A stretch of DNA of 63,734 nt, counting the filler. It is 6 parts of 6 records of this genome, joined end to end, with 100 filler letters (N's around TTAATTAATTAA, not from the genome) between each part and the next. Parts side by side here need not be neighbours in the genome. Positions count along the whole stretch, not along the records: positions 45,884 to 56,223 come from DRR723986_5870; 5 more parts are not named here. One strand, 5' to 3'. This document shows, piece after piece, positions 4,001 to 56,323 of the stretch (positions are counted from its first letter, which is position 1; every line of letters starts with the position of its first letter). A program made the translations under genes and the position numbers. The notes under the pieces are model-generated. The model did not search any database, had not been told where the DNA came from, and worked only from the letters and a program-made list of their open reading frames with translations.

Positions 4001-6750
4001 GTGGAGTTGAGCTAGATGAAACCGTCTACTTCGTAACGGAATCACAGCTTAAGGAGCTAATTGACGCGGAGGTCCCCGGAATCAACGCTTATTCACAGCT
4101 CGGTTCGCGGAGAATGCGATTGCCGTTTAACTATACCCATGATGGCGATGGTTACGCGCTGTTGCACATTCGTGAAGTGGGTGAGAACAACGATGCGCTT
4201 GAGGGGGAAGGACTGGAGATGGTTATTCGCACAGATGAATTCATAGAATTTAATCTTAAGCCGGGACAAGGGCGGTTTTTCCGCATTAAAGTTTTGGCAC
4301 CAGATGAAACAAATAACTCCGAAGGTGACCTGGCATATGCCAACCAACGTAAACTGGCAGTGCGACGCGATCTGAACGGGAACTCGTCTTCCCAGCAATA
4401 CCTCGCTGTCTTTCATCGTACAACGGATCAGACTGGTGGGGCCCTTAGCACTGACCGTGTATTTTACCAAACCAGCACATCCACAGCCTTAGCCGAAGAC
4501 TTTGAAGACACTGAGTTTGCGAACATAGAGTGGGAGCCGACCGTTACAGATATTTCTCAGGTGATAGAACGCGAAGTCTCTGGGACTGCAATAGCTCTTG
4601 TTCTTGGTTGTTCACATCCGTCGATTGTGTACGATCCAGAACAGGATATGGTGCATGCCGTATATGCTTGTCTTTATCTGGAAAACAATGTGCAACGCAT
4701 TGGAATCATTGAAAATTCATTTCCTCCTGACAACCCTGATGTGACTGGGCGCGAGTTAGCAAGTTTTGACGTTACTGCTCTGCCTGGTGGTTACGATAAT
4801 CCGCTGGATGTTTGGGGAACTCCAGTGATCAGTTTAACAGATGGTTTGCTGTTTATTGCCTGGTCATCTGCAAAGGGTGGAATCGGAGTTGGAGTGAAAA
4901 CTCCTGGCGGCAACGCATTATTGAATCTTCCCCAGACTATTAGTGTTAACAATAATGAAACGGCGCGTCACCCTTCGCTGATATCTTATTCTCGCATTGA
5001 AGGTGGGGAGGATGAAACAGCCTTGGTTTGGCAGGAATCCGCAGGAGGGCCGGCAGCAGGATCTGAGATATTTTACACTCGCCTTGAGTTTAACAATTCA
5101 CAGATTGATCACTTTTTAGCTAAAGGAACACTGCGACCCGCGCTGAGCTCAACGGACCTGTTTCTGGAAGACGGTGACCAGATAATGGTGCTTAGCCGTC
5201 TGACAGAGGATCCGGCTAATCCAGGAGCTTGTGCTGCGCTTAATTATGTTGCTCCAGTTATTCAGCGCGATCAAGCACAACCGCTGAGAGCAACTCAATT
5301 GAGGCCAATTCAGGTACCGCTGGGGGGATATGCCCCTGTTGAAGGGAACTTTATAAGCGATTGTATCTCTTGGGCATGTGACGGTGAGGAAGGTAGTACA
5401 TCGCGCATTTTCTTCAGAATGCCGACCTTTTTTGATTTTGTTGACAATGGTGTTCCAACGACCGAAATATTTCTGCCGAATGTTGGTCAAGTCATCGAAT
5501 TGACAGATCATGCGCTTTCGCGACCTGACTTAACAAACGGTGAGAGCCGGCCACTTTTCTATCCTTTTAACAATGTACCCGAGGTAATCGGTCCATCAAC
5601 TGGAGCTGGGCCATTCAGTTTTATTCTGAATTATCGTGCAGAAAACCAGGGCGCATTTCCAGCTCCGGCACAGGGGCGTCATTTGCCGCTACGGCGGCGC
5701 TCGCTTTTAACAGATCTAAGTGATGAAAGCGACATGGATCGCCTCACTGAGATGCTTCGAAATTCGAGTATTATTCATGGAACCGATGACATTGGGTACA
5801 TACAACTAAGTGCGACTCCGGAATCGGTCTTCGATGCTGATACATACCGGCGTACACGGCGAATTTACAATTTGCCGGAGAGTGATCCTGATGGGCCGAT
5901 TTTCGCAAGTGCGCAGCATTTCTATCTTCAACAAGGTGATGCGCATGAAGTTCTACTCGCGCCTGGCTGTCGGGAATTTTGTTCCACATATATCTTCTTC
6001 TTGCCGGGTAAAAATGGCATAGGTGGTGAATATAAGCGGCTGAAGTTAAGTGGTGCAGTACCCAGCCCCTTGGCAAGTGCGCAATATGGTTCGTTTGAGC
6101 CAATGCTTGAGGAAGTCAGTTCCGACTGGTTTGATGTTAACAACGGTGATGTGCTCTCGTTTTATGGGCGGGGAGATGATTCAGGCTGCTTGTCAGCGGT
6201 TCTGGAACGTCAGGATGGTGGTAGTGAGATTGATATCCCGCTACCGAATACACCCAATGATGAAGCGGTGCGTGTTGAATACACGATTCAGAATCCGGCA
6301 GCGACGCAGTATCGCCTTAAGCTGTCGTTTATTGAAAATAGTCCAATTTCAACCTACAGCGAGTCTTTTGTGGCAGGGCAGTTTGATGTTGGCAGCGGGA
6401 CGGTTGTCGGCAATCTGAAGACTGCGCAGGAACCGCACACCGGCGCGCTCGACCTTGGTTTCCACAGCGTTGAACAGAATGGAACGGCGCTTGCGCTGCA
6501 TCCACATCCGGCTAGTGATTTTTTTAACATGTTGGCTCGCAATACTTCAATGACTGGTGAAGGTGTGAGCTTCACAGTACGTGATGTGCGCGGCGCCGTG
6601 CTTACACGTGTTAATGGTACTTATGGCGTGACCTTGCGCCTGGATACCTCACAGTGGCCGGCGGGGATGTATACGGTGGAAGCCGCAGCAAGTAATCCCG
6701 GTGCCTATGCTGCTGCGCCAACGCGTAGTACGCTGATTCTGGTGCCCTGA
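1036..6750 (+). CDS. Large secreted multidomain protein (1904 aa): putative glycoside-hydrolase-like barrel, beta-sandwich, beta-propeller-like region and T9SS type-A C-terminal sorting domain
   Basis: AGGAGG RBS upstream; signal peptide ending LQA-Q; RPKTGEETRLQLWTNVLLGAKGLVYY resembles clan-A-like TIM-barrel ends; repeated HPSI/TPVI/HPSL blades; C-terminal HPHPAS..TVRDVRGA..LDTSQWPAGMYTV is typical of a T9SS CTD. Confidence 0.75.
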   Translation: MFTLHKKVASMMLRGILLSLMIGSPGLQAQNHDPEPYVFDATDPVVETEGENVGQDRFILGWNWGDRPPAALSEALNMNMRHGDNLNVYFGLSDVDENNDGIPDHGTDVTEDMELVVALRDHCTVTVTDYPVVGYDPETDEGFVRYDHNILLTGLATEYWHASLIHGPAMQYSPINTIDSEGNLAVYNDGVKDASSLACFGFQTKAHEGIVEEYNGKHQWVLRADLFDGTATVLEDPWPNDVLFRRDEIGGAGMADGIMNGSEWYVSINLRLMEVSNLDDEAVVLTIELPYTTPDMLDAGEVEYVVFDSIPTTTIEALADNRGDVTTLKLAPGNKRIVEVRRGMLPDYVADDIENDVTISAHFRMRGVTNARLPVVEQVPNIEQDYINNDVNNPHPSNQQLATLGIEVNYMDNADLAITWVKFETPWARWLARGKFDTKIKDVIDDGVDLVKNLASPAGVTISRFYGTDEAPIAMWQAQRYLNIITGGRASTEMKIVHRDGEPNSISRRNMANYWRQLMGRREVWFGGTPLGAGHAAPFVLGGTYGVNHNSAFMNYKYPYIQRNYGSLDPAATDNRWQHNFLSHYETSVFLNRPGDWALPPLDDEEGSGSQPNRSAYQDMLSERGLEYIQAYWDQRLHFEYHENTEMLFDVNPWWVNLWTYVHFGSPNRPAGDILRDIKDHRPKTGEETRLQLWTNVLLGAKGLVYYRGTSSNLLEFNLVGISNEEDPINWPNGLNGRDLIEDDDLLGGDFITITMNQTATDHTQLAEVIKNPDGSIDEQQTNIERVNNILLNGRGNLGSNNDLETAPIVDLGNNEFYIGRRSMRLEIYNIHDWIAGPSGFDGDQTVGELLMDLDLYDWYGRGFRSEPTRTTNPKVNSPVLDQLVNLDDISISNINTFIDNNPAAPEESISEDRFFDVMLLDGPDLSDEVYYVGVVNRLTNPVIVTDQDLSTVLDPAPMVLYQPGNPSQSAVLPGVDLDEDGQADVGQGGVELDETVYFVTESQLKELIDAEVPGINAYSQLGSRRMRLPFNYTHDGDGYALLHIREVGENNDALEGEGLEMVIRTDEFIEFNLKPGQGRFFRIKVLAPDETNNSEGDLAYANQRKLAVRRDLNGNSSSQQYLAVFHRTTDQTGGALSTDRVFYQTSTSTALAEDFEDTEFANIEWEPTVTDISQVIEREVSGTAIALVLGCSHPSIVYDPEQDMVHAVYACLYLENNVQRIGIIENSFPPDNPDVTGRELASFDVTALPGGYDNPLDVWGTPVISLTDGLLFIAWSSAKGGIGVGVKTPGGNALLNLPQTISVNNNETARHPSLISYSRIEGGEDETALVWQESAGGPAAGSEIFYTRLEFNNSQIDHFLAKGTLRPALSSTDLFLEDGDQIMVLSRLTEDPANPGACAALNYVAPVIQRDQAQPLRATQLRPIQVPLGGYAPVEGNFISDCISWACDGEEGSTSRIFFRMPTFFDFVDNGVPTTEIFLPNVGQVIELTDHALSRPDLTNGESRPLFYPFNNVPEVIGPSTGAGPFSFILNYRAENQGAFPAPAQGRHLPLRRRSLLTDLSDESDMDRLTEMLRNSSIIHGTDDIGYIQLSATPESVFDADTYRRTRRIYNLPESDPDGPIFASAQHFYLQQGDAHEVLLAPGCREFCSTYIFFLPGKNGIGGEYKRLKLSGAVPSPLASAQYGSFEPMLEEVSSDWFDVNNGDVLSFYGRGDDSGCLSAVLERQDGGSEIDIPLPNTPNDEAVRVEYTIQNPAATQYRLKLSFIENSPISTYSESFVAGQFDVGSGTVVGNLKTAQEPHTGALDLGFHSVEQNGTALALHPHPASDFFNMLARNTSMTGEGVSFTVRDVRGAVLTRVNGTYGVTLRLDTSQWPAGMYTVEAAASNPGAYAAAPTRSTLILVP

Positions 6751-16705: not shown

Positions 16706-16805
16706 NNNNNNNNNNNNNNNNNNNNNNNNNNNNNNNNNNNNNNNNNNNNTTAATTAATTAANNNNNNNNNNNNNNNNNNNNNNNNNNNNNNNNNNNNNNN
16801 NNNNN
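16706..16805. other. Artificial contig linker
   Basis: N44-TTAATTAATTAA-N44 (stop codons in all six frames). Confidence 0.99.
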
Positions 16806-24577: not shown

Positions 24578-24677
24578 NNNNNNNNNNNNNNNNNNNNNNN
24601 NNNNNNNNNNNNNNNNNNNNNTTAATTAATTAANNNNNNNNNNNNNNNNNNNNNNNNNNNNNNNNNNNNNNNNNNNN
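24578..24677. other. Artificial contig linker
   Basis: N44-TTAATTAATTAA-N44. Confidence 0.99.
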
Positions 24678-32140: not shown

Positions 32141-32240
32141 NNNNNNNNNNNNNNNNNNNNNNNNNNNNNNNNNNNNNNNNNNNNTTAATTAATTAANNNN
32201 NNNNNNNNNNNNNNNNNNNNNNNNNNNNNNNNNNNNNNNN
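32141..32240. other. Artificial contig linker
   Basis: N44-TTAATTAATTAA-N44. Confidence 0.99.
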
Positions 32241-45783: not shown

Positions 45784-45883
45784 NNNNNNNNNNNNNNNNN
45801 NNNNNNNNNNNNNNNNNNNNNNNNNNNTTAATTAATTAANNNNNNNNNNNNNNNNNNNNNNNNNNNNNNNNNNNNNNNNNNNN
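45784..45883. other. Artificial contig linker
   Basis: N44-TTAATTAATTAA-N44. Confidence 0.99.
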
Positions 45884-45921: not shown

Positions 45922-47262
45922 GTGATGCGCAAACTTTTCGGCACCGACGGCGTCCGCGGACAATCTAACAGCTATCCAATGACGTCCGAGACGGTTTTAA
46001 AACTGGCAGCCGCGGCTGGACGCTATTTTCGGCGCGACCAGTTGGAGCATCGCGTGGTCATCGGCAAGGATACGCGCCTGTCGGGCTACATGCTCGAGAA
46101 CGCTTTGACTGCTGGGTTTACCTCAACTGGGATGAATGTGTTTCTGCTGGGCCCAGTGCCCACACCCGCCGTGGGGTATTTGACCCGATCGATGCGCGCG
46201 GATGTGGGTGTTATGATTTCGGCCAGCCATAACCCGGCGCATGACAATGGAATTAAGTTTTTCGGGCCTGACGGATTTAAACTCTCTGATGCTGCCGAGG
46301 CTGAGATTGAGCAACTCATGCAGGGTGACATAGCTCTGTCTCACCCGTCCAATATTGGCCGGGCCAAACGGATAGACGACGCAGGCGGCAGATACGTAGA
46401 GTATGCAAAAACCACCTTCCCCCGTAACTTGCGGCTAGATGGCTTAAAGATCGTTCTCGATTGCGCCAACGGCGCCGCATATAAAGTTGCGCCAACTGTG
46501 CTATGGGAGCTAGGCGCCGAAGTCATCCGCGTAGGCGTCGACCCAAACGGCACCAATATTAACCAAGACTGTGGCTCAACCCATCCGGAGCAAGCAGGGG
46601 CCAAAGTGCGAGAAACCGGCGCACATGTGGGCATTTGCCTGGACGGCGATGCTGATCGGCTCATTTTACTCGATGAAAAAGGCAGCGTGGTCGATGGCGA
46701 CCAGCTGATGGGGCTAATCGCCACGCGCTGGGCGCAGGAGGGGCGCCTGTCCCATAACACTCTCGTAGCTACCGTGATGAGTAATCTGGGGCTGGAACGA
46801 CACCTGAATGAACACGGCATAGCTTTAGAACGTACCTCCGTGGGTGATCGCTACGTGGTGGAAGCCATGCGTCGGCAGGGGTTTAACTTAGGCGGCGAGC
46901 AGTCAGGCCACTTGGTGATGACCGATTACGCCACAACGGGCGATGGCTTGATTGCCGCCCTGCAGGTGTTGGCAGCTATGGTGGAAACTGGACACACGGC
47001 CAGCCATCTAACCCAAGTGTTCCAGCCTGTGCCACAAAAGCTGCAAAATGTACGCTTTTCAGGGGAGAGCAATCCTTTGGAGGCGGACGAAGTGCAGCAG
47101 GCTATTGCACGAGGTGAGCAAACTCTGGACAGTAACGGTCGCCTTCTCATCCGCAAGTCAGGCACCGAGCCACTGATCCGCGTAATGGGCGAAGCCGAAG
47201 ACATGAACAAACTGGACGCCGTGATTGCCGACATTTGCAACGCGATCGAACGCGTTAGCTAA
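45922..47262 (+). CDS. glmM: Phosphoglucosamine mutase
   Basis: [44 protein letters not shown]. Confidence 0.97.
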
Positions 47263-47433
47263 GTGACATCACGGGCCTCACCTCAAAAAATCTGAGACCC
47301 AACACAAAGACCAACTTACCATAGGTCAGAAGGCGCGTCCTTGGCGCGCCTAATTTCATAGTAAAAAGATTTTATGTCTCAGAAATCTGTTTCTTGACAC
47401 AGGGACTGCAGTCTGAGAAACAAAGAGTGAACA

Positions 47434-47482
47434 ATGAGCGTTATGAGCGACTAAGTAGAGCATTATCTAAGTAGAGCGTCAT
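47434..47482 (+). repeat. Tandem direct repeats upstream of the hypothetical gene pair
   Basis: ATGAGCG twice (47434, 47443); CTAAGTAGAGCRTYAT twice (47451-47466, 47467-47482; 14/16 identical). Confidence 0.7.
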
Positions 47483-47526
47483 CCCTCCCGATAGGGGGGC
47501 CAACGTAACATTGTGGAGATCCTTCC

Positions 47527-48171
47527 ATGACAGAGACAAACACTGCCGCAGACAGCGGCCTGGTAACTTTTGCCGAATTTTTCGACGCAATTGCGGCACG
47601 CGCGACAATATACGGAGAAACGCGTGACGGCCATCGACAATTCCGAACAGCGTTGATGAAGTCGCTTACACCTTACACACCATACGAGCGCGCCGTGGCA
47701 GAAAACCTGGTCGCGATTGAATGGGAAATCTTGCAAAAGCGCCACATGCTGGATGCTATAAGGCGGGATGTGATTGAGGGTCTGCTTACGACACTCATAC
47801 TTAAGCATGCCGAGGAGCGCCACGAGCACGATCTCGATAAGGCATGGAGCGCGTTTGAGGCTGACGGGGGCTCTGAGGACGACTGGGACCCCGAGCCGTT
47901 TGACAAGGAAAGCGTGACAAGGGAGGCACGCGATCTGGCAAAAAACGCCCTCAGCAATGACTTGGAAGTCGCCATGGAGGCCTCTCGAACTTTACGTGAT
48001 ATGGGCGTCGACGCCGTGTTAGTGATGGCGGAAGCCCAGCTCAAACTTGGCAAGAGCGTGCTGAGGATAGATGAAGATATCCGCATCCTTGAGCGTCGCC
48101 GGCGCGAGGTCAATAAGGACTACAAGACGCTTAAAGCATGCATCCTCTACGCGCCCGCCAGGATACAATGA
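47527..48171 (+). CDS. Hypothetical helical protein (GE..L.P..PYE...ENLV..EWEI motif)
   Basis: GGAG RBS; 214-aa ORF; ATGA overlap with the next gene. Confidence 0.75.
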   Translation: MTETNTAADSGLVTFAEFFDAIAARATIYGETRDGHRQFRTALMKSLTPYTPYERAVAENLVAIEWEILQKRHMLDAIRRDVIEGLLTTLILKHAEERHEHDLDKAWSAFEADGGSEDDWDPEPFDKESVTREARDLAKNALSNDLEVAMEASRTLRDMGVDAVLVMAEAQLKLGKSVLRIDEDIRILERRRREVNKDYKTLKACILYAPARIQ

Positions 48172-48794
48172 CCCTGAGTATCACACGGCGCAATCAGGCC
48201 AACGCGCAACATAGCACGGGCCCAAAGTCAGAGGACGGAAAGGCGCGCTCGTCTCAAAACGCGCGCGCCCACGGCGCAACGGCGGCACCCAGCCCCTCAC
48301 ACGTAGCTGCGTGGCTGAGGGTGATCTTGAACAAAGACACCCTCGAGGAGCATGATCTAAAGCCAATAACGCGGGTGGGGCGATGCGCGTTAGAGCTTGC
48401 CACCGCGGAGGCACGCCTCGCAATCACCGAGCAAGCGCGTCGCGATCGGGGTGAGGAAGACTGGCAAGCCAAGACACTCACCTCTCTCGTGCGGGAAATT
48501 AGCAAAAGTCTCAGCATAATCTATGATGACCCTCCACCGGGTAGAGGCCGGAAATTCCGGAGCCCGGAGGAGGCGCTGTTGGAAGGGCTCAACGCGGTGG
48601 AGCGCCTAAAGCTGGCGGTGGATACGGTGGAAGCCGACAAACACCGGCTCACCTGGCGCTATCAGGGGGAGGCGCAAGCGACACGGCGGCGCGCTCTGTA
48701 CGCGTGGGGCAGCGCGCTAAAAGAAGACTATGAGAGCAGACAGAGGCCTCTATGCGAGGCTGAGATCCCGAAACGAACCCAAACACACGCCTAA
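48168..48794 (+). CDS. Hypothetical protein with N-terminal NxxNAxxSTGPxxxxGKARSSxNAxxHG motif
   Basis: ATG at 48168 overlaps the upstream stop; motif RNQANAQHSTGPKSEDGKARSSQNARAHG; C-terminal RY..EA..TRRRAL and PKRTQ. Confidence 0.8.
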   Translation: MTLSITRRNQANAQHSTGPKSEDGKARSSQNARAHGATAAPSPSHVAAWLRVILNKDTLEEHDLKPITRVGRCALELATAEARLAITEQARRDRGEEDWQAKTLTSLVREISKSLSIIYDDPPPGRGRKFRSPEEALLEGLNAVERLKLAVDTVEADKHRLTWRYQGEAQATRRRALYAWGSALKEDYESRQRPLCEAEIPKRTQTHA

Positions 48795-48838
48795 CGCGAT
48801 ACACTTTGCCAACACGATTTCCCGAAACGAACCCAAAC
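48766..48838 (+). repeat. Exact 19-nt direct repeat TCCCGAAACGAACCCAAAC, two copies, 35-nt spacer
   Basis: Copies at 48766-48784 (inside the ORF 3' end) and 48820-48838. Confidence 0.9.
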
Positions 48839-48946
48839 CACAACCCATAGGTGTATTCACCCCATAAACCTCCGATAACACATCCCCATGGCCATTCGGC
48901 CAAGCTGTGCTAAACATACATCCAGTAACCAGTAACAGTGCCTTTT

Positions 48947-49501
48947 ATGCCCCCCATGCCCCTTCCCGGCCTTGTGCATCACACACCCCGCCGCCATGGC
49001 GACCACCGTGGTTTTTTTGCGGAAACCTACAGCCAGCGGGCCTATGCGGGCCTGGGGGTGGATGCCACGTTTGTGCAAGATAACCACTCGGTTTCTGCGG
49101 CTGTGGGCACGGTGCGGGGCCTGCATTTTCAGGCGCCGCCACATGCGCAGGCCAAGCTGGTGCGCTGCGGGCGGGGTGCCATTTTCGATGTGGCGGTCGA
49201 TATTCGGCGCGGCAGCCCTACCTATGGCCGCTGGGCGGGCTATACGCTGAGCGCGGAGAACGGCGCGCAGCTATATATTCCCGTGGGTTTTGCCCATGGC
49301 TTTGCCACGCTCGCGCCCGACAGCGAGATTATCTACAAATGTAGCGATTATTACGCGCCAGAAACCGAGGGCGCGCTGCGCTGGGATGACCCGGATATTG
49401 GCATCAACTGGCCCCTCACCAGCGCCCCGGTGCTGAGCGGGAAAGACGCCGCAGCCCCGCTGCTGGCCGGCTTTAATAGCCCATTCACCTTTGAGGGATA
49501 A
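48947..49501 (+). CDS. rmlC: dTDP-4-dehydrorhamnose 3,5-epimerase (start uncertain, 48938-48956)
   Basis: DHRGFF; FVQDNHS; RGLHFQ; DVAVDIRRGSPT; GFAHGF. Confidence 0.95.
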   Translation: MPPMPLPGLVHHTPRRHGDHRGFFAETYSQRAYAGLGVDATFVQDNHSVSAAVGTVRGLHFQAPPHAQAKLVRCGRGAIFDVAVDIRRGSPTYGRWAGYTLSAENGAQLYIPVGFAHGFATLAPDSEIIYKCSDYYAPETEGALRWDDPDIGINWPLTSAPVLSGKDAAAPLLAGFNSPFTFEG

Positions 49502-49504
49502 CAG

Positions 49505-50557
49505 ATGAAGCTACTGGTCACAGGGGGGGCGGGGTTTATCGGCTCGGCCGTGGTGCGGCTGGCGGTGGCGCGCGGGCATCAGGTGGTGAACCTTGATGCG
49601 CTGACCTATGCCGCCAACCTGGCCAATGTGGCGCCGGTGGCGGATAGCCCGCTTTATGCCTTTCAGCAGGCCGATATCCGCGATCGTGCGGCGCTGGATG
49701 CGGCCTTTGCCACGCACCAGCCCGATATCGTGCTGCATCTGGCGGCCGAATCCCATGTTGACCGTTCCATCGATGGGCCCGCCGATTTTATCGACACCAA
49801 TATCACCGGCACGTTCAACATGCTGGAGGCCGCGCGCAAATATTGGCAGGCGGCGGGGCGGCCAGATAGCTTTCGCTTTCATCACGTCTCGACAGACGAG
49901 GTGTTTGGCTCGCTGCCTGCAGACCCCTCCGTGCAGTTTACCGAGGCCACAGCCTACGACCCGCGCAGCCCCTATTCCGCCTCGAAAGCCGCGTCAGACC
50001 ATCTGGTGCGCGCCTGGTTTGAAACCTATGGCCTGCCCGTGGTGCTGAGCAATTGCTCGAATAATTACGGGCCCTATCACTTTCCAGAAAAGCTGATCCC
50101 GGTGGTTATTCTGAACGCGCTGGCGGGGCGGGCGCTGCCGATTTACGGCGATGGCAGCAATATCCGCGATTGGCTTTACGTCGAAGATCACGCCGATGCG
50201 CTGTTGTTGGTGGCAACGAAAGGCGCGCTGGGGCGCAGCTATAACATCGGCGGCGAGAACGAGCGCACAAACCTGCAGCTGGTGCACACGATATGCGCCA
50301 TTCTCGATCGGCTGCGCCCGCGCGATACGGGCGCTTATGCCAATTTGATCACCTTTGTCACCGACCGCCCCGGCCATGACGCGCGCTATGCCATCGACCC
50401 CACGCGCATTCGCGCCGAGCTGGGCTGGCGCCCCAGCGTGACGGTGGAAGAGGGGTTGGAACGCACCGTGCGCTGGTATCTCGAAAACGAGGCCTGGTGG
50501 CGCCCGCTGCTGGGCCGCCAGGGCGTGGGCCAGCGGCTGGGCCGGGCCGCACCATGA
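49505..50557 (+). CDS. rmlB: dTDP-glucose 4,6-dehydratase
   Basis: [35 protein letters not shown]. Confidence 0.97.
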
Positions 50558-51420
50558 GCGGCCTGTTGATCTTTGGCCGCACGGGCCAGGTGGCGCGCGA
50601 ACTGCAGCAGCTTGCCCCTGTTCTGGCCCCGGTTTTCGCACTGGGGCGCGATGCGGCCGATCTGGCACAGCCCGGCGCCTGTGCGGCGGCCATCCACGCC
50701 TACCGCCCCCGCGCGGTGATCAATGCCGCAGCCTATACGGCCGTTGACCGTGCGGAAGCGCAGGAAGACCTTGCCACCGCCATCAACGGTGCGGCGCCGA
50801 CGGAAATGGCCCTGGCCTGCTCTGCGCTGAATATTCCCTTGGTGCATATCTCTACCGATTACGTGTTTGCTGGCACCGGCCACCGCCCTTGGGCGCCCGG
50901 TGATATGGCACAGCCCGCCAATGCCTATGGCCGCAGCAAATGGGCGGGCGAAGAGGGCATTCGCGCCAGCGGCTGCACCCATGCCATTTTGCGCACCTCG
51001 TGGGTGTTTTCCGCCCATGGTGCGAATTTTGTCAAAACCATGCTGCGCCTGTCTGACACCCGCGACCAGATCAGCGTGGTTGATGACCAAATCGGCGGCC
51101 CCACGCCGGCGCGCGCCATTGCCGCTGCCTGCCTGGCGATCGCCGAGCAGCTGCAGGAGGCGCCGGAAAAAACCGGCACCTATCATTTTAGCGGCGCGCC
51201 CGATGCCAGCTGGTGCGCCTTTGCCCGCGCGATATTCAGGCAGGCAGCCCGGCCCACCCGCGTGCAGGCGATTTCCACCAGCGCCTATCCCACGCCAGCC
51301 GCCCGCCCGCTGAACAGCCGCCTTGAGTGCAACACAACCACCTCCGTTTTTGGTTTGGCGCGCCCAGATTGGCACGCAGGGCTGAAGGAATGTTTAACAC
51401 AGTTAGGGGTATCCACATGA
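50554..51420 (+). CDS. rmlD: dTDP-4-dehydrorhamnose reductase
   Basis: [34 protein letters not shown]. Confidence 0.95.
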
Positions 51421-52289
51421 CACAGCGCAAAGGCATTATTCTGGCCGGTGGCTCGGGCACGCGTCTTTACCCCATCACCATGGGTGTGTCGAAACAGCTG
51501 CTGCCGATTTATGACAAGCCAATGGTGTATTATCCCTTAACCGTGCTGATGCTGGCAGGCATCCGCGAGATCATGATCATCACCACCCCCCACGACCAAG
51601 AGCAGTTCATCCGCACCTTGGGCGATGGCAGCCAATGGGGCATCGCGCTGCAGTATAAGGTGCAGCCCAGCCCCGATGGGCTGGCGCAGGCCTTTATTCT
51701 GGCCGAAGAGTTTTTGGCCGGCAGCCCTGCGGCTATGGTGCTGGGCGATAACATCTTTTTTGGCCACGGCCTGCCGAACCTTTTGCAAGCGGCAGATCAA
51801 ACCACCGCCGGCGCCACGGTATTTGGCTACCGCGTGTCAGACCCGGAGCGCTACGGCGTGGTGGATTTTGACGCCAATGGCACGGTCAAAAGCATCATCG
51901 AAAAGCCGCCCGTGCCGCCCTCGAACTATGCCGTGACGGGGCTTTATTTTGTCGATGCCACAGCGCCCGAACGCGCCCGCGCGGTGCGCCCCTCGGCCCG
52001 GGGCGAGCTGGAGATCACCACGCTTTTGGAAAGCTACCTGCACGACGGCCAGCTCACCGTGCAAAAAATGGGCCGCGGCTATGCCTGGCTAGATACCGGC
52101 ACCCACGCCAGCCTGCTGGACGCCGGCAATTTTGTGCGCACCCTGACCGAACGCCAAGGCCAGCAAGTGGGCAGCCCCGATGAGGTGGCGTATGAGATGG
52201 GCTGGATCAGCAAACCCCAACTACAGGCCCGCGCAGAGCAGTTTGGCAAAAATACATATGGGGCATACCTAACGGGCCTGGCGCGCTAA
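51417..52289 (+). CDS. rmlA: Glucose-1-phosphate thymidylyltransferase
   Basis: [39 protein letters not shown]. Confidence 0.97.
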
Positions 52290-56223: not shown

Positions 56224-56323
56224 NNNNNNNNNNNNNNNNNNNNNNNNNNNNNNNNNNNNNNNNNNNNTTAATTAATTAANNNNNNNNNNNNNNNNNNNNN
56301 NNNNNNNNNNNNNNNNNNNNNNN
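56224..56323. other. Artificial contig linker
   Basis: N44-TTAATTAATTAA-N44. Confidence 0.99.

Follow-up and report, generated by a model that had tools for sequence, protein, structure and literature searches.

Here, we describe two translationally coupled genes, ORF1 and ORF2, in a 63,734-nt stretch of DNA (the window, meaning the whole stretch that was analysed), whose products belong to a family of small, helical bacterial proteins that is very large and lacks annotation. Genes of this family are associated with a short DNA site at their 3′ end, an association that is conserved across phyla, and selection acts on this site at the nucleic-acid level, whatever its reading frame or orientation. 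The gene pair and its site together point to a protein-plus-binding-site unit of an undescribed kind.

A coupled gene pair between glmM and rml genes

The pair is flanked by glmM and an rmlC-like ORF (Table 1), and the rml side of the locus in the window comprises rmlCBDA. Both ORFs lie on the + strand and both are predicted to be all-helical, confirming an earlier description of the locus as two helical ORFs joined by ATGA. ORF2 starts with MTLSITRRNQANAQHSTGPKSEDGKARSSQNARAHG and ends with ...IPKRTQTHA, and its opening motif, NxxNAxxSTGPKxxxGKxxSxxNAxxHG, spans N9..G36, a segment predicted to form a helix, an STGPK loop and a second helix. AF2 models reached a pLDDT of 80.4 for ORF1 and 83.9 for ORF2, the latter an all-helical monomer with an N-terminal helix-loop-helix. 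Because the GC3 of ORF1 and ORF2 (0.62 and 0.68, respectively) is close to that of glmM (0.62), the pair carries no compositional sign of recent import; the module region is C-rich and G-poor, with a GC skew of −0.165.

Table 1 Features of the locus, with positions along the window, and groups of family copies found within single genomes
Feature	Position (or loci)	Strand	Remark
glmM	45922-47262		Flanking gene
Upstream leader	47451-47499	+	16-nt tandem repeat (47451-47482), then CCCTCCCGATAGGGGGG (47483-47499); ends 28 nt before the ORF1 start
ORF1	47527-48171	+	214 aa, predicted all-helical, without the STGP motif
ATGA overlap	48168-48171	+	ORF1 stop and ORF2 start
ORF2	48168-48794	+	208 aa, predicted all-helical, N-terminal STGP motif
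Coding region of N9..G36 (NQANAQHSTGPKSEDGKARSSQNARAHG)	48192-48275	+	Family-defining motif at the N terminus of ORF2
DNA motif copy 1 (TCCCGAAACGAACCCAAAC)	48766-48784	+	Within the last ORF2 codons, read PKRTQ
DNA motif copy 2	48820-48838	+	Identical to copy 1; 26 nt past the ORF2 stop
ATAGGTGT box	48847-48854	+	Fixed distance after motif copy 2; read by eye; tentative
Second module-linked motif AACCTCCGATAACAC (consensus CAAAyNCCCGATAAC)	48866-48880	+	78 nt after the ORF2 stop
rmlC-like ORF	48938-49501		Flanking gene
Within-genome copy groups	L017/L030/L035/L049; L018/19/20/32; L026/L038		79-94% identity over ~0.6-1 kb

Fourteen homologues of ORF1 were found, and an ORF1 homologue lies directly upstream of an ORF2 homologue in loci L001-4, L006-8 and L021. 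The upstream ORF is also present in three of three plasmid loci, where its 3′ end and the start of the STGP gene share 4 nt, according to the annotation in L081 and L082 and to the open reading frame in L083. These loci bear out the earlier claim that the two genes co-occur, and in every two-gene locus that could be judged the ORF1 homologue precedes the ORF2 homologue. A hint that the two proteins are paralogous stood only in part. Compared directly, ORF1 and ORF2 show no likeness (BLASTP E 21; hhalign probability 0.5%), whereas ORF1 (A1) aligns with the core of the wider family (A7) with an hhalign probability of 80.5% and an E value of 1.3e-5, its residues 29-84 matching the stretch downstream of the STGP motif in single-gene members.

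A family of small helical proteins in several phyla

A profile of ORF2 relatives (A2) matched 24,342 cluster representatives, each standing for a cluster at 50% identity, at E ≤ 1e-3, with 926 at ≤ 1e-10 and 111 at ≤ 1e-30. The family is spread over several phyla, with members in Alphaproteobacteria, Acidobacteriota and Planctomycetota, and single genes make up the majority of its members. A genome scan yielded at least 602 pattern matches, 420 of which were confirmed, and the loci examined here are the best 80 of those 420. Residues N9..G36 form invariant columns in the family alignments A2, A3 and A7, and ORF2 homologues share the same start Met. Synonymous codons in the N9..G36 coding region vary across 12 relatives, and selection there is therefore on the protein.

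The earlier note had named a match to a characterised family as one of the findings that would count against it, and no such match emerged among the families searched (Pfam, NCBIfam, PHROGs and PADLOC), in which the window proteins and up to 69 relatives gave only scattered single weak matches. Pfam returned no match for ORF1, ORF2 or 12 canonical relatives, and ORF2 had no match in PHROGs. In the ESM Atlas, the nearest clusters were all labelled 'hypothetical protein' and lacked a Pfam family. A sequence profile search of the PDB and Foldseek searches against PDB and BFVD gave best E values of 0.16-0.34, all to generic coiled coils, and no fold or sequence relative was found among DNA-binding proteins. 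No longer fused forms with the N-terminal motif were found, which is weak evidence, and literature string searches returned only unrelated papers. The family has neither a name nor a domain model.

A DNA site at the gene end

In the window, TCCCGAAACGAACCCAAAC forms an exact 19-nt direct repeat of two copies with a spacing of 54 nt, a pairing far beyond chance; the shuffle controls apply to the looser 13-mer with up to two mismatches, not to the exact 19-mer. The window contains exactly two occurrences of GAAACGAACCCAA, one within each 19-nt copy (48770-48782 and 48824-48836), and the site is present there only as the two copies at the module. The repeats had earlier been described as bracketing the gene pair, a claim that has to be withdrawn, as both copies are 3′, one in the end of ORF2 and the other past its stop. 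An upstream look-alike at 47299-47326, placed before the glmM terminator hairpin, scored within the shuffle range.

Across the family, the core of the site is ACGAA[C/G]CCAA, with CCGAAAC[G/A]AA[C/G]CCAAAT as the alphaproteobacterial form, and members carry one to three copies at or just past the 3′ end of the gene. The 10-mer ACGAASCCAA was found 32 times on the + strand and 16 times on the − strand of 692,627 nt, against ~1.3 expected per strand, and 20 of the 32 + strand matches lie no more than 100 nt from a stop. Sites scoring at least 12 bits with a position weight matrix (PWM) were present on the + strand between −120 and +150 of the stop in 28 of 78 genes, on the − strand between −250 and +150 in 20, and on either strand in 48; because the PWM was built from the same gene set, these near-stop counts are partly circular, and the fair control for them is the far-field rate of 0.064 per kb. 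No site of at least 12 bits lies near the stop in 30 of the 78 genes, and in 15 of the 78 one strand bears at least two sites, spaced 39-218 nt from each other. Among two-gene loci, the site is clear in 11 of 12 and degenerate in L006. A complete 191.5-kb plasmid contains a single strong site, directly after the module, which scores 30.1 bits against 15.6 for the runner-up. In plasmid NZ_CP139709.1, the second module has lost the STGP motif and the site together, a single example.

Selection on the site as nucleic acid

Among the 150 best family representatives, 42 carry the motif within their last 35 residues, compared with none when the tails were reversed, and the motif is read as K[RQ][TS]Q in 16, N[EK][PA][KNR] in 9 and ET[NK]P in 18. 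The claim in the earlier note that KRTQ, NEPN and ETNP tails are one DNA motif read in different frames therefore holds, and homologues in which the motif lies just after the stop agree with it as well. Some relatives end in Ala-Ala. At the DNA level, the copies inside ORFs are distributed over the frames as 9, 4 and 2, with a further 20 copies after the stop, and the core stands at the gene end in all three frames or just past the stop in Alphaproteobacteria, Acidobacteriota and Planctomycetota alike.

In one subfamily, the core is inverted within the ORF. In 12 Bryobacterales genes, the inverted site is written with the codons GGC (11/12), TTC (12/12), GTT (12/12) and TTT (11/11), whereas in the remainder of these genes Val is encoded mostly by GTC and never by GTT, and Phe by TTC. 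This codon use shows selection acting on the nucleic acid itself, as had earlier been proposed. Because the site occurs in any frame, in inverted copies and with otherwise-avoided codons, it is best understood as double-stranded DNA, not as a peptide or a folded RNA.

Further sequence elements around the module

Past the second motif copy, the ATAGGTGT box has a ATAGGTTG-like counterpart in several alphaproteobacterial loci. The pattern CCAA-N5-12-ATAGGT has five matches in the window against 0.38 expected, and the box is tentative because only two of these five loose matches lie near the module, the other three being at unrelated sites. For the second module-linked motif, CCGATA[AG] is present on the + strand 74-131 nt past the stop in the window and in L002, L006, L008, L082 and L083, and farther away in L081, the background being ~0.1 per kb per strand. 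A bracketing of the module by CCGATA was rejected as marginal, the upstream copy being present only in the window and L002 of 12 loci. The upstream leader may be a control region, and it is not conserved in the other loci inspected. Comparison by eye with consensus sequences for a sigma-54 promoter, LexA box, tRNA T-arm, hammerhead, attC, Tn3 end and CRISPR repeat end gave no fit in spacing or symmetry, and these candidates were set aside.

Neighbourhood and genomic copies

Members of the family sit singly next to diverse, unrelated housekeeping genes, with about one quarter of the loci no more than about 1.2 kb from a contig end. Some pairs are hosted by variable regions and plasmids, and one is adjoined by ccdAB. 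Several genomes hold multiple diverged copies (Table 1). In Bryobacter, the repeated unit takes in 125 nt or more before the start, the gene and the site, and the similarity between copies stops shortly beyond the site; the units have 100-250 nt of upstream sequence of their own. A repeat search over 46800-49400 detected no pair of repeats, inverted or direct, that flanks the genes, and neither terminal inverted repeats nor target duplications were seen in this interval. No transposase, recombinase or HUH domain was matched in any domain library searched, and the predicted folds are helical bundles for which no relatives were found.

A candidate cassette and its alternatives

Our preferred reading of these observations, to which we assign a chance just short of even, is that of a self-contained cassette; its protein would bind the site at the 3′ end of its own gene, and the unit may be mobile. 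In the two-gene form, ORF2 would bind the site through its N-terminal helix-STGPK-loop-helix, and ORF1 would supply the core segment that single-gene members hold in the same chain; the two-gene form naturally separates the motif-bearing portion of the protein from its core. The predicted binding would depend on ACGAACCCAA and on residues 9-36 (STGPK). The bound complex would have its analogues in transposase-end, initiator-iteron or centromere-type units and would serve the maintenance, duplication or spread of the cassette; because no known catalytic domain is present, breakage or copying of DNA would need a host or helper enzyme. Counting against a cassette, copies within a genome differ by 6-21%, unlike copies of active insertion sequences, a few strong sites lie beside toxin-antitoxin-like genes 2-4 kb from STGP genes, 30 of 78 genes lack a site of at least 12 bits near the stop, no relative among DNA-binding proteins was found, and no terminal inverted repeats, target duplications or compositional signature of import were seen.

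In its widest form, which we put forward only as a speculation and hold to be rather doubtful, the proposal is of an unrecognised, phylum-spanning class of self-contained cassettes, in which a helical protein of ~200 aa reads its own 10-17 bp double-stranded DNA end site via a conserved N-terminal STGPK arm and which persists, duplicates or moves with no transposase, recombinase or phage machinery of a known kind; in Alphaproteobacteria, two translationally coupled proteins would share the task. If the protein does bind the adjoining site, the unit would be a new and very common selfish or regulatory DNA element. Thousands of 'hypothetical proteins' whose unusual tails read KRTQ, NEPN or ETNP would then be accounted for, and annotators would be warned that such tails are read-through into a DNA signal.

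The site might instead be a signal read by the host, such as a promoter, an operator or a regulatory box (of the ECF type, for example), with the STGP protein as an ordinary regulator or a passenger, which we consider unlikely. Several of the alphaproteobacterial copies have GTTG 16 nt after GAA[C/G], a spacing that resembles that of ECF-type −35 and −10 elements, and the second motif, CCCGATAAC, looks like the sigma-28 −10 box. The placement of some sites would also suit a host signal: in L051 and L041/L057 the site is upstream of the gene, and a few strong sites are 2-4 kb away from the nearest STGP gene and adjoin toxin-antitoxin-like genes (VapBC-like and HEPN/MNT-like). However, a −35 box would be shorter than the conserved stretch of ~15-17 nt, the inverted orientation is kept within ORFs, and scans for sigma-70 promoters and terminators found none at the site. 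Of 25 loci with a + strand site near the stop, 16 have a co-oriented downstream gene, which is the overall rate (51 of 76). A general signal should, moreover, recur, but the site is found nowhere else in the window or in the 191.5-kb plasmid.

Less probable still is a divergent terminase small subunit or satellite-type packaging specificity factor, a relic or hijacker of phage or GTA packaging for which the repeats would be the pac site. A cis site inside or adjoining the gene is the classic terS/pac layout, and in L058 the site separates the STGP gene from a Terminase_6N ORF that starts 42 nt past it; nuclease genes (HNH or DUF968) adjoin the gene in L041, L057, L049 and L065, and L045 weakly matches two TerS PHROGs (E 3.4e-4 and 6.7e-3). 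Yet that TerS match is confined to one of 69 proteins, no Pfam terminase family was matched, tblastn with three family proteins found nothing in 50,697 phage records, and Foldseek against viral and PDB structures found nothing. Only one of 73 downstream neighbours is a terminase, most being housekeeping genes, and the window module itself is flanked by glmM and rml genes.

The transcript-like look of the repeated unit would be explained if the element acted as RNA, whether as a signal in the 3′ UTR, as the target of an sRNA or as the 3′ recognition tag in a copying process like that of retroelements. This very unlikely reading would fit the location of the site, which in most loci is the 3′ end of the mRNA, the extent of the Bryobacter unit and the C-rich, G-poor composition of the region. 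On the other hand, folding of the site region gave no stable structure (z +0.62), with an energy not below that of shuffles; an Rfam search of 46800-49400 at E ≤ 1 returned only a chance sR55 match (E 0.14), and Rfam matches in 14 loci were only riboswitches and tRNAs away from the site. In the 20 genes with an inverted site the mRNA would carry the complement, and an upstream or divergent site, as in some loci, does not suit an RNA element.

A toxin-antitoxin, addiction or defence module with an incidental DNA motif is scarcely credible, for although two small genes with a 4-nt overlap, locations in variable regions and plasmids and a single ccdAB neighbour would suit it, there is no consistent PADLOC, Pfam or NCBIfam match, family members are mostly single genes, each protein is a helical ~210 aa without a known toxin fold, and the conserved site would be left unexplained.

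Comparison with known systems

As a cassette whose protein would bind its own 3′ site, the locus shares features with several known systems; readings as a terminase small subunit, toxin-antitoxin system, insertion sequence or integron each failed when checked against features of those systems. Terminase small subunits with their pac sites (for example, P22 gp3 and SPP1 G1P) are likewise small, mostly helical proteins with a cognate site in or beside their own gene, sometimes in several boxes, and the relative in L058 directly precedes a large-terminase ORF. They differ in that the family has no convincing sequence, profile or fold match to them and that nearly all its copies stand alone among housekeeping genes.

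Like insertion sequences, the family is multi-copy in some genomes and inserted between unrelated genes, with about a quarter of its loci near a contig end and, in one genome, a repeat-unit boundary that coincides with the site. By contrast, it lacks a transposase, recombinase or HUH protein as well as terminal inverted repeats and target duplications, its copies diverge by 6-21%, and the site is mainly at one end. Integron cassettes with attC sites also combine one ORF of no known function with a 3′ site and occasionally have toxin-antitoxin neighbours, but the family site is short and is not an imperfect palindrome, no inverted repeats follow ORF2, the loci contain no arrays and no nearby integron integrase, and the units have 100-250 nt of upstream sequence of their own.

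With initiator-iteron and ParB-parS systems the family shares repeated short sites in and just after the gene, in either orientation and 39-218 nt apart; in lambda O, too, the ori lies inside the gene. Unlike these systems, the family has no homology to Rep, ParB or related proteins, its copies are chromosomal and number several per genome, and the window offers no replicon or partition ATPase context. What the locus has in common with protein-plus-cognate-site units as a group, Rep/iteron, ParB/parS and TerS/pac among them, is a site that adjoins the gene and an association between the two that is conserved across lineages.

A gene pair with a direct repeat on its 3′ side

The pair lies between glmM and an rmlC-rmlB-rmlD-rmlA block, and an ATGA joins its two frames, the ATG of ORF2 overlapping the TGA of ORF1; the start methionine of ORF2 is the same methionine in its homologues. 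ORF2 begins with RRNQANAQHSTGPKSEDGKARSSQNARAHG, which carries the STGP motif, and ends in IPKRTQTHA. An exact 19-nt sequence, TCCCGAAACGAACCCAAAC, includes the PKRTQ codons and recurs 54 nt on. The GC3 values of ORF1 and ORF2 (0.62 and 0.68) are like that of glmM (0.62). The earlier note had direct repeats bracketing the pair; both copies lie 3′, and no equivalent was found upstream, where the best look-alike, before the glmM terminator hairpin, scores within the shuffled-sequence range, so bracketing was not confirmed. No third copy of that note's 13-mer occurs in the 63.7-kb window at up to two mismatches, and a repeat search at the pair revealed neither terminal inverted repeats nor target duplications.

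Ahead of ORF1, 16-nt units of the form CTAAGTAGAGC(A/G)T(T/C)AT stand in tandem and are followed by CCCTCCCGATAGGGGGG, whose end is 28 nt from the ORF1 start. This stretch, possibly a control region, shows no conservation among the further loci inspected. Masked stretches appear in the window as five pairs of runs of 44 N; the pair at 45784 cuts the TRAP solute-binding ORF that immediately precedes glmM.

Coordinates of features in the window and in related loci (L numbers, loci of the genome scan and of plasmids)
Feature	Record	Position (nt)	Strand	Remark
glmM	window	45922-47262		5′ flank of pair
rmlC-rmlB-rmlD-rmlA block	window	from 48938		3′ flank of pair
ORF1	window	47527-48171	+	214 aa
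ORF2	window	48168-48794	+	208 aa
ATGA overlap	window	48168-48171
19-nt repeat	window	48766-48784, 48820-48838
Upstream look-alike	window	47299-47326
Tandem-repeat stretch	window	47451-47499
CCGATA box	window	48866-48880
44-N run pairs	window	16706-16805, 24578-24677, 32141-32240, 45784-45883, 56224-56323
Terminase_6N ORF	L058	472-2728		exceptional neighbour, 42 nt after STGP gene; position includes the STGP gene
ERF/DUF968-HNH genes	L041, L057			exceptional neighbour
HNH gene	L049			exceptional neighbour
Rad52+DUF968	L065			exceptional neighbour
PD-(D/E)XK nuclease	L045			exceptional neighbour
Mutator transposase	L075			exceptional neighbour
c-di-GMP-I riboswitches	L051	4503-4592, 4669-4759
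DNA motif copies	L051	4917, 4961
REP-like repeats	L017	~4840-4870, 5700-5790
Tandem array	L039	5693-6338
Single related units	L031	1101-1207
Single related units	L066	911-1020
Distant strong motif copies	L041	991, 1308
Distant strong motif copies	L074	7660
Distant strong motif copies	L065	3843
Degenerate two-gene module	NZ_CP139709.1	97963-101147		L085/L086

A very large, unnamed family

Word-indexed homologues, nearly all metagenomic and labelled hypothetical, numbered 32 for ORF2 and 14 for ORF1. When 28 ORF2 relatives were built into a profile and compared with 1.84 billion cluster representatives, 24,342 proteins matched at E ≤ 1e-3; the number fell to 926 at ≤ 1e-10 and to 111 at ≤ 1e-30. 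The family-wide N-terminal motif is N-x-x-N-A-x-x-S-T-G-P-K-x-x-x-G-K-x-x-S-x-x-N-A-x-x-H-G. In the genome scan, pattern matches numbered at least 602, 420 of them confirmed; the best 80 of the 420, the loci that we read, come from Alphaproteobacteria, Acidobacteriota (many Bryobacterales) and Planctomycetota, and also from one Zixibacteria, one deltaproteobacterial and one Acidimicrobiales MAG. Pfam, NCBIfam, PHROGs and PADLOC gave scattered weak single matches at most for the window proteins and up to 69 relatives, the closest ESM Atlas clusters are unnamed, and text-string matching of the literature returned unrelated papers only; the family is very large and has no name.

AlphaFold2 with alignments predicted confident, all-helical structures (pLDDT 83.9 for ORF2 and 80.4 for ORF1), in which the N-terminal motif of ORF2 is modelled as helix 3-14, loop 15-21 (STGPKSE) and helix 22-35. 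Foldseek returned generic coiled coils only (best E 0.34 and 0.16 for ORF2 and ORF1 against PDB, 0.28 for ORF2 against viral entries), and a PDB sequence search was negative.

A 3′ motif conserved in any reading frame

The site at the end of STGP genes is a short DNA motif whose frames yield the tails KRTQ, NEPN and ETNP, as the earlier note had proposed, and this frame-independent conservation held up. Among the 150 best representatives, its translation lies within the last 35 residues in 42, with tails K[RQ][TS]Q in 16, N[EK][PA][KNR] in 9 and ET[NK]P in 18, against 0, 0 and 0 in reversed tails and 2, 6 and 1 in the protein bodies, which hold 4.5 times more residues. In 692,627 nt of loci, the 10-mer ACGAASCCAA was found 32 times along the gene strand, 20 of them no more than 100 nt from the stop codon, and 16 times on the other, with ~1.3 expected per strand.

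A 26-nt PWM was applied to 78 genes, drawn from 75 loci, two plasmid loci and the window; the set leaves out L053 and L081 as well as four ORFs that continue beyond their contigs. It placed a gene-strand site at -120 to +150 of the stop in 28 genes, an inverted site at -250 to +150 in 20 and a site in either orientation in 48, counts that are partly circular because the matrix was built from 29 near-stop instances; at distances above 1.5 kb the PWM matched at 0.064 per kb, both strands summed. Gene-strand copies within ORFs were divided 9/4/2 by frame, with 20 after the stop, and 15 of the 78 genes carried at least two same-strand sites, spaced 39-218 nt.

Inverted sites are almost all in one frame, read G-F-V. 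Their codons in 12 Bryobacterales genes are GGC (11/12), TTC (12/12), GTT (12/12), TTT (11/11) and TCA (10/12); in the rest of the same genes Val is mostly encoded by GTC, never by GTT, and Phe by TTC. The STGPK codons show synonymous changes in this test. Selection acts on the protein at the N-terminal motif and on the nucleic acid at the 3′ motif. The 3′ motif occurs in both orientations and has no predicted fold, and a double-stranded DNA site is the simplest reading of it.

Three loci also have strong motif copies at a distance of 2-4 kb from the STGP gene, beside HEPN/MNT-like and VapBC-like pairs and near tRNA-Leu; STGP genes are thus not strictly the only places where the site occurs. 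A second conserved box, CAAAyNCCCGATAAC(G/A), stands 74-131 nt after the ORF2 stop in the window, L002, L006, L008 and the Gemmobacter (L082) and Sulfitobacter (L083) plasmid loci, and farther from it in the Aestuarium plasmid locus (L081); the background of CCGATA[AG] is ~0.1 per kb per strand. The box resembles the sigma-28 -10 box GCCGATAA, but no TAAA stands at the correct spacing.

The two-gene form

The expectation that the two genes co-occur was borne out: an ORF1 homologue lies directly upstream of the STGP gene in eight of the 80 loci (L001-L004, L006-L008 and L021; hmmsearch E 5e-86 to 1e-8), all Alphaproteobacteria. The layout also occurs on the three plasmids, where both genes are annotated hypothetical and where the test for homology of the upstream ORF to ORF1 covered the Sulfitobacter plasmid; the 4-nt overlap is present as annotated in Aestuarium and Gemmobacter and at open-reading-frame level in Sulfitobacter. 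L005 is cut by a contig end, and L022 has a weak ORF1 match (E 0.069). The site is clear in 11 of 12 two-gene loci and degenerate in L006.

The suspected paralogy of the pair found no direct backing, similarity between ORF1 and ORF2 being undetectable, and survives indirectly: ORF1 residues 29-84 (GE..F...L...L.P.TPYE..VAENLVAIEWE) align with the post-STGP segment of single-gene members (hhalign probability 80.5%, E 1.3e-5, 56 columns), and weak reciprocal HMM matches agree. Judged by this alignment, the alphaproteobacterial module looks like the family's two conserved parts split over two translationally coupled proteins. A second, degenerate module on NZ_CP139709.1, in which ORF2 lacks the STGP motif and the downstream site has decayed, adjoins an HTH gene, a tyrosine recombinase and a gene annotated terminase small subunit.

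Genomic neighbours and copies

Among 73 downstream and 62 upstream neighbour ORFs, those matched by Pfam are mostly ordinary genes (PEP carboxylase, EF-G, TyrRS, acyl-CoA dehydrogenase and transporters, for example), and the exceptions are tabulated; the Terminase_6N ORF of L058 appears broken into two frames that overlap, resembling a packaging module gone defective. Two-gene modules often stand beside cell-envelope polysaccharide genes (glmM|rmlCBDA at 45922-52289 of the window, galU and an epimerase on the Aestuarium plasmid, a family 2 glycosyltransferase in L004) or VanZ (Sulfitobacter and Pontibaca), the loci listed being L081, L083, L006 and L004. In a deltaproteobacterial MAG (L051), two c-di-GMP-I riboswitches and two motif copies precede the STGP gene, a layout that suggests a family member under second-messenger control.

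Some MAGs hold several copies with 79-94% identity over 0.6-1 kb (L017/L030/L035/L049, L018/L019/L020/L032 and L026/L038), and in Bryobacter the similarity runs from at least 125 nt upstream of the start codon to just past the site. The 21 of 80 loci within ~1.2 kb of a contig end count as weak evidence, MAG contigs being short. REP-like repeats, GCCGCGACC(N)CAGGGAGCG, on both sides of Bryobacterales copies (L017, L030 and L035) are a separate repeat family, and in L039 the STGP gene is closely followed by a tandem array of ~93-nt units, with single related units in two other MAGs.

Proposed working and comparison with known systems

The gene and its short DNA site have been inherited and have spread together across phyla, and the N-terminal arm and the site, and nothing else, are conserved across the whole family. 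We tentatively favour, as possible rather than probable, a reading in which the arm would read the site and the complex of protein and site, frequently formed on two or three sites, would serve the cassette in maintenance, copying, movement or control, with enzymes presumably supplied from elsewhere because a catalytic domain is absent.

That the site is instead a promoter or operator read by the host seems unlikely, since its co-orientation with the downstream gene (16/25) is no higher than background (51/76) and it is absent elsewhere on a replicon; the complete 191.5-kb Sulfitobacter plasmid holds one strong site (30.1 bits), directly after the module, the next best scoring 15.6. A divergent terminase small subunit with its pac site has an attractive layout, and L058 fits it, but we doubt this reading more strongly, given a weak TerS match in only one of 69 proteins, no phage record matching the three family proteins queried and no fold match. 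A signal acting at the RNA level is improbable, given that sites also occur inverted and that structure is lacking: no RNA fold was predicted at the site (z +0.62) and no Rfam match was found there. A toxin-antitoxin or defence pair we consider highly improbable.

The STGP proteins end in Ala-Ala in 22 of 75 complete cases (loci L002-L079), ends that resemble ssrA-type ClpXP degrons and that could reflect either short-lived proteins or another DNA-level constraint at the stop.
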